A program made the position numbers and the translations under genes. The notes beneath the pieces were generated by a model. That model saw nothing but the letters and a program-made list of their open reading frames with translations. It was not told the origin of the DNA and ran no database searches. A stretch of 64,000 bases of DNA from Promethearchaeota archaeon (GTDB lineage Archaea > Asgardarchaeota > Lokiarchaeia > Sigyniarchaeales > SOKP01). Positions 4,423-28,631 of the stretch are shown in pieces. How positions within the stretch are numbered: position 1 is the stretch's first letter; each line of letters opens with the position of its first letter. The stretch spans positions 1 through 64,000 of the forward strand of contig JAHLWS010000070.1 of the NCBI GenBank assembly GCA_019057795.1, written 5' to 3'.

Positions 4423-4527
4423 CGCACCTGGAGGGATTTGAACCCCCGAGCGCTTACGCGCACTGGCTTACTTGATAGTTTCTATTGTACGCTCAAGGCC
4501 AGCGTCTTACCACTAGGCTACAGGTGC
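4423..4527 (-). tRNA. tRNA-Ser(TGA) with 23-nt canonical intron (4469-4491, position 37/38)
   Basis: Acceptor stem GCACCTG/CAGGTGC, anticodon arm CTGGC-CTTGAG^A-GCCAG, long variable arm. BHB helix CTTG/CAAG with bulges AG|C and TA|A. Confidence 0.93.
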
Positions 4528-5253: not shown

Positions 5254-5453
5254 TTTTGAGCTTAAATTTCTCTCTTTTCTTTTTAAAATTTAACTTTTTC
5301 TAATTTAGTTTCACAATGATTTTTTTTTTCTTTGTTTCATTTCAATACAGATCCAATACGCGATACAATGAAAAAGTATTAAAATTTTAAATCGTTATAA
5401 TGAAAAAAGAAACACACCTAAAAAAATTGTATTTATGCTCGGGACTATAAAGA

Positions 5454-5567
5454 GCTCAGCTCATTAGCCTCTTCGTGCTAGTGAAAGTTCGTCGCTTAGC
5501 CTGGTAGAGCGCTGGATTGCTAATCCAGTGTCCATCGGATGCGTGGGTTCGAATCCCACCCTGAGCG
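5454..5567 (+). tRNA. tRNA-Ser(GCT) with 31-nt non-canonical intron in the acceptor stem (5460-5490, position 6/7)
   Basis: The 3' acceptor strand CCTGAGC-G needs GCTCAGG, which forms only by joining GCTCAG (5454-5459) to G5491. Anticodon arm CTGGA-TTGCTAA-TCCAG, long variable arm, T arm GTGGG-TTCGAAT-CCCAC. Confidence 0.88.
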
Positions 5568-5615
5568 TATCTATTTTTAAAATTTTGATTGTTAATTAAT
5601 AGTTTTTCTTTGTTT

Positions 5616-6968
5616 TTAACCTAAAAAATTGTCTAAACCTCCCTTTTTCAGCTTCAAAGAATCTGTAAAAGGATCATAATCTAAATCATAATTAAACGGA
5701 CATTTTATACCCGTCTGCTCGTTAAATTGTTTTAATATTTCTGTTTGGAATGTATTTATAGTCTTTTTATTAAATCCATTAATTTCCTTTAACCTTATTA
5801 CAACTGTATTGTAATCAGAAAGACCAGCTATAACATTCTTCTTTTGATCATTTTCCTGTTGTTTTTTAAAATCTTCCCAAGATTTATGAATCCAATTTGG
5901 CCATCTATCGTGTTGAAGACCATCATATTCAAATGAAATCTTAAAAATCTCTCCTTTCACAGAAACCTTATTATTATAACCATCCCATCTTAACTGCCCT
6001 CCTTCCTCTGCAGAGAGCCCATATGCATTTTTTAACGAAGTTTCTGAAAATTCTGCATCAAATATTGCTTCCATATATAAACGTGTAATTTTTTGACAGA
6101 AATATTCTTTACATGTAGGACACCATTGATTATGGTATAAAATGTGAAGGATTTGAGGTGAAAAAGTATGGTTTTCTTCACAGACAATTTCAATGTGTTG
6201 TTGACTAGGAAATTTCATAGAATCGAACTGCTCTTTTGATGTTAATAAGGTCCCTCTTCTATTTCTAATAAAGTTTTGTAATTTTTCATACTTTAATCTT
6301 ACATCTTGACCACCCTGTCTATTAGTCCAAATTTCTTTAAATCTTATTGCAGACTCTTCTGACCCAAATTCCCTCAATAAGTATTTTTCTATCCAATTTG
6401 TGATGGTGTTTCTTTCAACATTTATCATATCTGCAAAATCTTGTAATGAAGGAATCTTTGAAATATCATTAGGATAATTTTTAATGTATTCATGTAAGAT
6501 TTGGTAAAATTTTTCTCTTTTAATTTTGTTTACTAAAGAACCTTGAGGCCATAGATCTTTCTTAATTCTCATCATTTCCTGTTTAGTATATCTTAGTTTA
6601 ATATATTTATTAAGAAAATCTATAACAAACGGTTTTGAAACATCAAATTTATTTGCAAGTTTATTCATACTTAATATTTTATCTTCTCTGATATTCTCGG
6701 GATAATTTTTTAAAATAGAATCAAGATACTCATTTAATTCTTTTCTAACATTATGATAATGGGATTTGCCTCTTCTTGATTTCTTTAGTGATCTATATTC
6801 TCTTTCATCTCTGGGTTCAAACTCAAATTCGGAATCACTTTCGTCTAATCTAATTTCATCTTCTGGTTCAAAATCGTTTTCAAGATAATAGTTTTCAATT
6901 ACATCTTCATTATTGATATCAAACTTATTTTCTTCATCCTTATATTCATTATCATTATGTTCTTTCAT
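5616..6968 (-). CDS. Hypothetical protein: acidic N-terminus, HTH-like segments, Zn ribbon and C-terminal PD-(D/E)XK/Vsr-like endonuclease domain
   Basis: CEENH...WCPTC; LRWDGY...FEYDGLQH; HTH-like SMNKLANKFDVSKPFV and SLQDFADMINVERNTI. Confidence 0.6.
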   Translation of the reverse strand: MKEHNDNEYKDEENKFDINNEDVIENYYLENDFEPEDEIRLDESDSEFEFEPRDEREYRSLKKSRRGKSHYHNVRKELNEYLDSILKNYPENIREDKILSMNKLANKFDVSKPFVIDFLNKYIKLRYTKQEMMRIKKDLWPQGSLVNKIKREKFYQILHEYIKNYPNDISKIPSLQDFADMINVERNTITNWIEKYLLREFGSEESAIRFKEIWTNRQGGQDVRLKYEKLQNFIRNRRGTLLTSKEQFDSMKFPSQQHIEIVCEENHTFSPQILHILYHNQWCPTCKEYFCQKITRLYMEAIFDAEFSETSLKNAYGLSAEEGGQLRWDGYNNKVSVKGEIFKISFEYDGLQHDRWPNWIHKSWEDFKKQQENDQKKNVIAGLSDYNTVVIRLKEINGFNKKTINTFQTEILKQFNEQTGIKCPFNYDLDYDPFTDSLKLKKGGLDNFLG

Positions 6969-7175: not shown

Positions 7176-7278
7176 GGGCCCATGGTTTAGTGGTTATGAT
7201 TTAATTTTTAGGAATTGAATAATATACGTCTCGCTTACACCGAGAAGATCGGGAGTTCAAACCTCCCTGGGCCCACCA
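7176..7278 (+). tRNA. tRNA-Val(TAC) with 27-nt non-canonical D-stem intron (7199-7225, position 23/24), CCA encoded
   Basis: Acceptor stem GGGCCCA/TGGGCCC-ACCA, anticodon arm TCTCG-CTTACAC-CGAGA. The D-stem 3' strand TG|AC is interrupted; BHB helix GTTA/TAAT with bulges TG|A and AT|A. Confidence 0.92.
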
Positions 7279-27421: not shown

Positions 27422-28631
27422 ATGGTAATTAAAAAAGTTGGAATTTTAACGGGCGGCGGAGCCATGTTCAAGACTTTTCTTGACTGCCGTACACTGCCCC
27501 GGGTTAAATAGTGTAATTTATGGGATAATGTTAAAAGCCTACGATGCCGGTATAGAATGTGTTGGGATTCTTAAAGGTTGGAAAGGATTTGTGGAGAACT
27601 TAACTATCCCTCTAAATATCGCCGAACATGATGATTTACACACAGTTGGAGGTACAATATTATATACCAGTAGAACCAATCCTTTTAAAGGAGTTGATTC
27701 GAAAGAAGAAAAAGCAAAAGAATTAGCAAAGAAATTTGATGAATTAGGTATTGATGCACTTATCGCTATCGGTGGAGATTTAAAACGGTTTACATTTTAA
27801 ACCTAAAACGATACTTTAAGTGTTGCGGATGCTATGTGCAAATACTCAAAAGCGAATGTAATTGGCTGTCCAAAAACGATAGACAATGACTTGTTTGGGA
27901 CCCATTACACGTTCGGATTTTGGAGTTCGACGCAATTAGCTTCTAATGCAATGGACAATCTCACCACAACAGCTCGTTCGCATCAGCGGGTTTTTATAGT
28001 TGAAATAATGGGGAGAGATGCAGGATTTCTTACAATGTATAGTGGAATTTCTGCTGGTGCCGATATAATATTAATTCCTGAAACACCGTTTAGTTTAGAA
28101 AAGGATGTTATTGACGTGCTTAAAAAAAGAGTCAATGCAGGGTACAAATATCACATAATTGCCACCTCAGAAGGAGCTTATCCAAATTCAGAGTCGTTGA
28201 ACAAGGATTTTAAAACGATATCAAAAGAAACGATAGATAAATTACCTAAGGATACATACGGAAACCCGTTGCTTGTAAAATTGAATATATCCAAAATAAT
28301 TGTTGAAGAACTCAACTTAAGAGAAGATTTGAAAAAGGAATTTCAGAATAATGGTGTGGATTTTGAGTGTAGAAGCGTAGTCCTGGGCCACACAATGCGA
28401 GCAGGAACTCCTAATTGTTTTGATCGTATATTAGGATTAAGGTTTGGTTTAGCTGCAATGAAATTGGTTTTAAACAAAGACTTTGGTTATATGGTTTCGC
28501 TCCAAGGAACTAAAATAGAGAAGGTTCCCTTAGCTGAAGGTGTTAAAAAGAAGTATATAACATTTGATAATGATAAAATGGAATTACGAGACCTATTAGT
28601 GAAAATTAGATATTTATCGAAACAAAATTAA
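27422..28631 (+). CDS. pfkA: PfkA-family 6-phosphofructokinase (PPi-type signature), spliced: join(27422..27461,27493..27777,27808..28631), 382 aa
   Basis: Spliced product reads MVIKKVGILTGGG-D-CPGLN ... GGTILYTSR ... IGG-D-DTL ... PKTIDND ... EIMGRDAG ... LGHTMRAG. The two inserts fold as BHB or relaxed BHB. Confidence 0.88.
27462..27492 (+). other. BHB pre-mRNA intron 1 in pfk (31 nt)
   Basis: Central helix GCGG/CCGT, bulges AG|C and AC|A, inner stem CA/TG plus TCAAGA/TCTTGA. Removal restores GGA GAC TGC CCC GGG. Confidence 0.85.
27778..27807 (+). other. Relaxed BHB pre-mRNA intron 2 in pfk (30 nt, contains in-frame stops)
   Basis: Outer stem ATCG/CGAT, inner stem TTTAAAA/TTTTAAA, central GTGG/CCTA (2 of 4 paired), bulges AG|A and AA|A. 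Removal restores GGA GAC GAT ACT. Confidence 0.75.

Follow-up and report, generated by a model that had tools for sequence, protein, structure and literature searches.

Introns in archaeal tRNA genes are thought to persist only where the precursor folds into a shape that the splicing enzyme can cut. For an intron that lies six bases from the tRNA's 5′ end, this creates a conflict, since the same bases are needed by the acceptor stem and by the splice helix. Such an intron, at position 6/7, interrupts the tRNA-Ser(GCU) gene found at positions 5454 to 5567 of a 64,000-nucleotide (nt) stretch of the Promethearchaeota archaeon assembly GCA_019057795.1 (contig JAHLWS010000070.1, here C70, positions 1 to 64,000), which is referred to below as the window. 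The leader of this gene contains a conserved second copy of the 5′ strand of the acceptor stem, termed here the spare copy. We consider it moderately probable that this is a working gene in which the spare copy holds the 3′ acceptor strand while exon 1 builds the splice helix.

Relationship to known tRNA introns and tRNA gene architectures

Non-canonical intron positions are numerous in archaeal tRNA genes; in a review (PMC4090602, citing Sugahara et al. 2008), position 3/4 in Thermoproteales represents the extreme acceptor-stem case. The intron described here shares with the 3/4 introns its short length, splicing by proteins, location inside the 5′ acceptor strand, and a host with a two-subunit EndA endonuclease, as well as a first exon so short that the splice motif draws on exon bases 1 to 4 and on bases of the leader. 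It differs from them in its position, in the host, which is a Loki-type Asgard archaeon, and in the presence of the conserved upstream copy of the acceptor strand. No description of such a leader copy for the 3/4 introns was found in the literature, in which the work of Sugahara et al. 2008 was represented only by the review that cites it. Likewise, the literature consulted on archaeal tRNA introns yielded no mention of position 6/7 and no description of a leader copy of the acceptor strand.

The tRNA introns previously reported from Asgard archaea come from the same superphylum, are spread over numerous non-canonical positions, escape standard annotators, and frequently show relaxed motifs, and their hosts typically encode two EndA paralogs. 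In these respects, they are similar to the intron found here. However, those studies centre on Atabeyarchaeia, Freyarchaeia, and Jordiarchaeia and on positions in the D arm and T arm, and acceptor-stem cases appear there only under “a few ... other.” Leader elements are absent from the main text of this work, in which “leader” occurs 0 times.

A further parallel is offered by the split tRNAs of Nanoarchaeum equitans and Caldivirga and by permuted tRNAs, where a conserved flank that is not part of the tRNA pairs into a structure that EndA can cut (PMC4090602, PMC4033280, PMC3218864). In those genes, the complementary flanks themselves form the helices of the bulge-helix-bulge (BHB) motif and join separate or permuted transcripts (PMC4090602, PMC4033280, PMC3218864). 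In contrast, the Ser(GCU) gene is a single contiguous unit, with all tRNA parts in order on one strand (5437-5567), which is the arrangement of neither a split nor a permuted gene, and its flank would mimic a tRNA strand in order to occupy the partner of that strand, not to form the cut site. The intron is a new position within the known class of non-canonical tRNA introns; the conserved spare strand is the interesting part.

The tRNA-Ser(GCU) gene and its intron

The gene and its leader consist of the following elements:

5437 to 5443, plus strand: spare copy (leader decoy) of the 5′ acceptor strand; it reads GCTCGGG, where the acceptor strand itself has GCTCAGG, and is able to base-pair with the 3′ acceptor strand along all 7 nt
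5444 to 5453, plus strand: variable linker of 10 nt that ends in GA (5452-5453); the GA can pair with U8 and C9 as the outer helix h
5454 to 5459, plus strand: exon 1, GCTCAG, tRNA positions 1 to 6; the central helix H takes its 5′ strand from positions 1 to 4, and A5 and G6 belong to the 5′ bulge
5460 to 5490, plus strand: intron of 31 nt at position 6/7, with an inner hairpin (5461-5468/5477-5484, loop 5469-5476), the 3′ strand of H (AAGT, 5485-5488), and two bulge bases (5489-5490)
5491 to 5567, plus strand: exon 2, tRNA positions 7 to 73, with the D arm, the anticodon GCT (5520-5522), a variable arm of 14 nt, the T arm, the 3′ acceptor strand CCTGAGC (5560-5566), and the discriminator G (5567)

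The CCA end is not encoded. A preliminary description of this DNA had already recognized a tRNA-Ser(GCU) gene with a 6/7 intron and a first exon of only 6 nt, had stated that its acceptor stem closes only without the insert, and had suggested that standard scanners may miss or truncate it; each of these statements holds. The Rfam tRNA model scores 41.1 bits over 5491-5560 only, which corresponds to model positions 7 to 64, and ARAGORN makes no call at the unspliced locus, with or without its intron option. With 5460-5490 deleted in silico, the locus is recognized by ARAGORN as an 83-nt tRNA-Ser(gct) whose 7-base-pair (bp) acceptor stem is perfect. Four orthologs from the same genus (L035, L040, L043, and L044) read GCTCAGG-TCGCTTAGC, with no insert and with identical exon sequence. 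These orthologs also fit the form GCTCAGG-TCGCTTAGCCTGGTAG, from which the window differs by exactly 31 nt between G6 and G7, and they show GCTCAGGTCGCTTAGC without a break. Given these identical uninterrupted orthologs, the 31 nt represent a true insertion, and because the bases at the two junctions differ, its borders at 6/7 cannot slide.

The assembly comprises 4.95 Mb and is 100% complete by markers. The preliminary description had called for a check for another Ser(GCU) gene; BLAST and pattern scans of the assembly found no second Ser(GCU) locus, and the gene with the 6/7 intron is also the sole Ser(GCU) locus in 5 other genomes that carry it. As the only locus of its kind, the gene should be essential for reading AGY codons. 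The assignment of this locus as a tRNA-Ser(GCU) gene with a genuine 6/7 intron is confirmed.

Conserved copy of the acceptor strand in the leader

Comparative analysis of the leader relied on an alignment (A1) of 11 intron-bearing homologs, which come from 9 species genomes and 2 metagenome contigs. In all 11 genes, the sequence GCTCRGG is found 10 to 12 nt upstream of exon 1. Six of its 7 columns are invariant, whereas the leader and linker on either side have 1 invariant column in 20 (Fisher p = 1.6e-4), and the sole variable position (position 5, A or G) retains the ability to pair with U68. The association with the intron is exclusive: among 93 distinct Ser(GCU) genes whose acceptor strand is not interrupted, none has the 7-mer upstream (0/93), and the spare copy is missing upstream of all 34 other tRNA genes of this genome (0/34).

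When the precursors are folded with the D, anticodon, and T stems enforced, the spare copy is predicted to pair with the 3′ acceptor strand in 11/11 sequences, with a probability (P) of ~1.0. Scrambling the spare copy lets exon 1 take the 3′ strand (P of 0.87 to 1.0), and the splicing helix is lost; for the window, the probability of the splicing-helix pairs drops from 0.87-0.95 to 0. The order of the segments allows the spare copy to pair with the 3′ strand and exon 1 with the intron end in a nested fold, while the converse combination is a pseudoknot.

Pairing of the spare copy with the D loop (CGGG.ACUA with UAGCCUG), which appeared in an unconstrained fold, was rejected: the D loop of G129 contains CCCGG with no compensating change in the spare copy, whereas the pairing with the 3′ strand holds in 11/11. 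In the window, the leader triplet UAU (5434-5436) can pair with GUA at 5567-5569, that is, with G73 and the first two bases of the trailer, which would extend the spare-copy helix to 10 bp. Similar extensions of 1 to 5 bp are seen in some relatives, but not in all of them.

The splice motif

All pairings that the preliminary description had named (central helix, bulges, inner stem, and outer stem) are present in the sequence. The central helix GCTC/AAGT consists of a G.U, a C-G, and a U-A pair plus a CxA mismatch (3/4 pairs), each bulge can be written with 3 nt (AG-C and TC-G, with the intron border at the hyphen), the inner stem h′ has 8 bp, and the outer stem, formed by the leader GA and U8 C9 (5492-5493), has 2 bp only. 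Across the 11 homologs, the proposed pairs are standard in 81.8% of the alignment cells versus 32 to 38% with the partners slid by 1 to 3 columns. The inner hairpin shows covariation, with 3 pairs changed on both sides, e.g., U-A to C-G and G-C to A-U. Exon 1, GCTCAG, is invariant in 11/11. In the central helix, the C2-G and U3-A/G pairs are each found in 11/11 sequences and G1.U in 8/11, and C4 is paired in 2/11. The linker has 10 to 12 nt and a variable sequence; its final A is invariant and the preceding G is found in 9/11. Of the outer contact, the pair A(-1):U8 is retained in 11/11 sequences and the pair G(-2):C9 in 9/11.

At the exact intron borders, the window scores (3, 8, 2) for H, h′, and h. 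Among 20,000 intron shuffles, 0.46% combine at least 3 central pairs with a neighbouring inner helix of 3 bp or more, and an h′ of at least 8 bp has a shuffle probability of 0.00035. An outer stem of 2 bp is found in 18% of shuffled leaders, and the same GA could alternatively pair with the upstream GCUC.

The strict hBHBh′ motif has two 3-nt bulges and a 4-bp central helix. With 3/4 central pairs in this gene and 2 in three relatives, the motif is, judging from its sequence, a relaxed HBh′-like one (the HBh′ type being defined in PMC5829648) and not a clean BHB. The earlier proposal of a BHB that uses the 5′ leader therefore stands only in part: the contact with the leader GA is conserved, but the motif is relaxed and its outer helix is limited to 2 bp. 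In the folding models, the leader probably contributes mainly through its conserved acceptor-strand copy of 7 nt, which the preliminary description lacked, rather than through the 2-bp outer stem.

Processing enzymes

This genome encodes two EndA paralogs of 200 and 201 amino acids, which are 32% identical; their genes lie in the regions of C69:74212-74436 and C74:72339-72587. One of them has the catalytic His and the other lacks it, a pattern that, at the sequence level, is as expected of the alpha and beta subunits. The (alpha-beta)2 EndA is the type that cuts relaxed motifs, and its specific loop is reported to be conserved in Asgard archaea (PMC5829648). A match to the RNA ligase RtcB (561 bits) and an RNase P RNA are also found in the genome. 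By homology, the organism appears to possess both an RNA ligase and the type of endonuclease needed for relaxed motifs, with the presence of the broad-specificity loop taken from PMC5829648.

Proposed mechanism and alternative explanations

In the proposed order of events, the primary transcript would contain, from the 5′ end, the leader, the spare copy (5437-5443), the 10-nt linker, exon 1 (5454-5459), the intron (5460-5490), and the rest of the tRNA. The spare copy would pair with the 3′ strand at 5560-5566, giving a nested, tRNA-like fold of the precursor and leaving exon 1 free. Exon 1 could then pair with the intron's 3′ end (GCU:AGU) beside the 8-bp hairpin, and the 2-bp GA:UC contact would close the other side, which would yield the relaxed HBh′-type motif. 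Cleavage by the alpha-beta EndA would take place on the 3′ side of 5459 and of 5490, with RtcB ligating the ends. Once complete, GCUCAGG would take over from the spare copy, and the leader, the spare copy, and the linker would be cut off by RNase P; the mature 5′ end expected with the proximal exon is GCUCAGGUCGC. The preliminary description concluded that splicing must come ahead of RNase P processing, but RNase P could also cut upstream of the spare copy first, while the latter is still on the 3′ strand. We infer how the RNA pairs in vivo, where it is cleaved, in which order the steps follow, and that the strands exchange; the insertion and its borders, its conservation, the hairpin covariation, the conserved spare copy with its exclusive link to the intron, and the enzymes encoded are observed.

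Several observations weigh against this scheme. All of its pairings are predictions. After splicing in silico, the folding model keeps the spare copy on the 3′ strand in 9/11 sequences, and an automatic thermodynamic switch upon splicing is accordingly not supported. With the spare copy favoured after splicing, the strand exchange would need RNase P kinetics with irreversible cleavage or tertiary folding. When the 5′ part is folded alone, RNAalifold pairs the spare GCUC with GA plus G1 and C2, a fold that would compete with the splicing helix and would likewise explain why GA is conserved. The central helix is a weak one (3/4 pairs here, 2 to 4 in relatives), and only 2 central pairs are found in G103, G151, and G153, whose sole Ser(GCU) gene carries the intron. 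Under constrained folding, the probability of the central helix is low in 5/11 sequences, and a central helix of at least 3/4 pairs, taken alone, occurs in 10% of the intron shuffles. In addition, within a window of +/-3 nt, chance is expected to give a relaxed central helix at some two-thirds of boundaries (preprint 10.64898/2026.10.13.758758). Relaxed motifs being so common by chance, the weight of the evidence rests on the conserved hairpin located directly at the junction. As for the distribution of the layout, no second tRNA gene with a spare copy was found in this genome, T-arm-anchored scans included, and among 244 tRNA candidates in the 1.86 Mb of loci compared, the layout is absent outside the Ser(GCU) family. 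Truncated Rfam hits in the genome, considered as a second instance of the layout, turned out to represent T-loop introns. Finally, the 11 cases probably share one origin, and, coming from what is probably a single lineage, the 11/11 associations are not independent events.

Some of these observations would fit a gene whose 6/7 intron is spliced by EndA but whose upstream copy is unneeded, being a relic of the origin of the intron or taking part in leader-trailer pairing or in the hairpin with GA plus G1 and C2, with exon 1 and the intron folding and being cut co-transcriptionally, ahead of the synthesis of the 3′ acceptor strand. This explanation appears unlikely, although it has several points in its favour. 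Transcription reaches the 3′ strand ~100 nt beyond exon 1, which makes co-transcriptional folding plausible, the hairpin of the spare copy with GAGC is kept in 9 to 11 of the 11 sequences when RNAalifold is applied to the 5′ part, the spare copy is a hindrance after splicing in the folding model, and all cases may share one origin. However, a relic should decay like its flanks, whereas the spare copy differs sharply from them in conservation and its only change keeps the pairing; furthermore, its exact match to 7 nt of the acceptor strand suggests that it pairs with the 3′ strand. The role of a start-site element is disfavoured by the position of the copy relative to the promoter-like block upstream, the distance to which varies from 24 to 48 nt. 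The elements that flank the gene are as follows:

5375 to 5401, plus strand: A/T-rich promoter-like block AGTATTAAAATTTTAAATCGTTATAAT; the same block is found upstream of the relatives' Ser(GCU) genes, with and without the 6/7 intron, across genera
5574 to 5578, plus strand: T-run 3′ of the gene, as read from the sequence, likely an archaeal termination signal

The promoter role of the former is suggested by what is known of the archaeal B recognition element (BRE) and TATA box. Mapping of the start site through the other tRNA promoters of this genome was abandoned, as their upstream regions are too A/T-rich for alignment.

It could also be that the upstream copy (5437-5442 or 5437-5443) is the true first exon, in which case the intron would have ~48 nt (5443-5490), the proximal GCTCAG would be intronic, and the mature 5′ end would be GCUCGGGUCGC. 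ARAGORN also accepts the cloverleaf that results from joining the upstream copy to 5491, in which G5.U68 is a wobble pair, and this copy can form the same GCUC:AAGU helix. We nevertheless regard this arrangement as very improbable. With the upstream copy as the exon, there is no helix at either splice site, giving a score of (3, 0, 0) versus (3, 8, 2) for the proximal hexamer, and the same is seen in 11/11 homologs. Given the order of the segments, pairing of the proximal copy with the 3′ strand together with the upstream copy in the splicing helix would be a pseudoknot. C4, A5, and G6 of the proximal copy are invariant even though they would then be unpaired bulge bases. The two copies differ at position 5 in this genome and in G042, G103, and G151, and the uninterrupted orthologs have A5, as in the proximal copy, and not G5. 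In view of both the scores and the unvarying C4 A5 G6, we take exon 1 to be the proximal hexamer and regard the upstream copy as its stand-in on the 3′ strand.

That the gene is decaying or silent and its insert is never removed, or that the insert is retained as an extra arm with the upstream copy serving as the acceptor strand, would agree with the degenerate central helix in three relatives but is hardly credible for the sole Ser(GCU) gene of a 100%-complete genome and of 5 other carriers, in which the exons are (nearly) invariant across two genera while the linker and the intron vary and the hairpin pairing is preserved through double changes.

Distribution of the intron and other tRNA introns in the group

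The pattern GCTCAG-N25-40-GTCGCTTAGC is found in 9 of 161 genomes of the class, with the 6/7 intron present in 2/42 genomes of the genus of the window and in 7/54 genomes of a second genus belonging to that family. The reversed control pattern gives 0 hits in the same 161 genomes. In a pattern scan of metagenomes, at least 2 contigs among the matches listed contain a true Ser(GCU) gene with the 6/7 intron.

In other members of the family, the Ser(GCU) gene carries different introns, located in the D arm, in the T loop, or near the anticodon. The D-arm intron, at ~22/23, has a clean TGGT/GCCA central helix, the T-loop intron has 29 to 30 nt, and L052 has an insert in the anticodon loop. Relatives with such other introns include L039, L049, and L051 from the same genus and L209, L210, L214, and L215 from the second genus, and some Ser(GCU) genes combine the 6/7 intron with one in the T loop. 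This variety fits the repeated intron gain that has been described for Asgard tRNA genes (preprint 10.64898/2026.10.13.758758; PMC11291895).

The Arg-GCG, Lys-UUU, and Asp-GUC genes of this genome have ~30-nt introns in the T loop or T stem. They are located outside the window, at C52:67433-67491 (minus strand), C70:127976-128036, and C78:135692-135758, and their Rfam matches are only truncated or below the threshold. In total, Rfam detects only 27 tRNA genes above the threshold in this complete genome. Anticodon-loop scans for the absent tRNAs (Cys, Phe, Thr, and others) recovered few genes, and this poor yield is probably due to introns.

No other copy of the Ser(GCU) intron was found in the genome, and its derivation from the window segments 27462-27492 or 27778-27807 was rejected, as they show no similarity to it. 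A 19-nt part of the intron, covering the loop and the 3′ arm (5468-5486, CCTCTTCGTGCTAGTGAAA), has a 100% identical match in two other species of the genus, at a locus that is unrelated (L077, G041:C94, ~1501-1519; and G043:C190:13666-13684). The match is in reverse orientation, at the start of a small open reading frame (ORF), and lacks the hairpin's 5′ arm. It may represent chance, with roughly 0.05 such matches expected, or a clue to the source of the intron.

Genomic neighbourhood

The window has a G+C content of ~31%, and the Ser(GCU) gene sits within a 360-nt gap between ORFs. A tRNA-Ser(UGA) gene is found at 4423-4527 on the minus strand; its variable arm is long, its intron of ~23 nt occupies the canonical position 37/38, and ARAGORN mislabels the gene as Thr(tgt). 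A tRNA-Val(UAC) gene with a D-arm intron of ~27 to 29 nt and an encoded CCA end is located at 7176-7278 on the plus strand. In several relatives, the Val gene directly follows Ser(GCU), whereas here an ORF of 450 amino acids on the opposite strand (5616-6968) intervenes.

Implications

Extending the stand-in role of the spare copy beyond this gene leads to a broader, tentative proposal, which we give slightly less than an even chance: introns close to the tRNA end that borrow acceptor bases would be viable only with a stand-in strand. Such strands, with the present spare copy as one example, would form a general, previously undescribed class of cis-acting helper elements of archaeal tRNA splicing that sets where introns can persist, and they would act in an ordered pathway in which pairing of the stand-in is followed by EndA cleavage, then by exchange of the strands, and finally by RNase P cleavage. 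On the side of annotation, standard scanners miss the Ser(GCU) gene, so that genomes of this group would wrongly appear to lack a serine decoder for AGY codons. If the proposed role is true, the spare strand represents a new kind of RNA helper element that would explain the survival of end-proximal introns, and it would provide a concrete order of tRNA processing steps in the closest prokaryotic relatives of eukaryotes.
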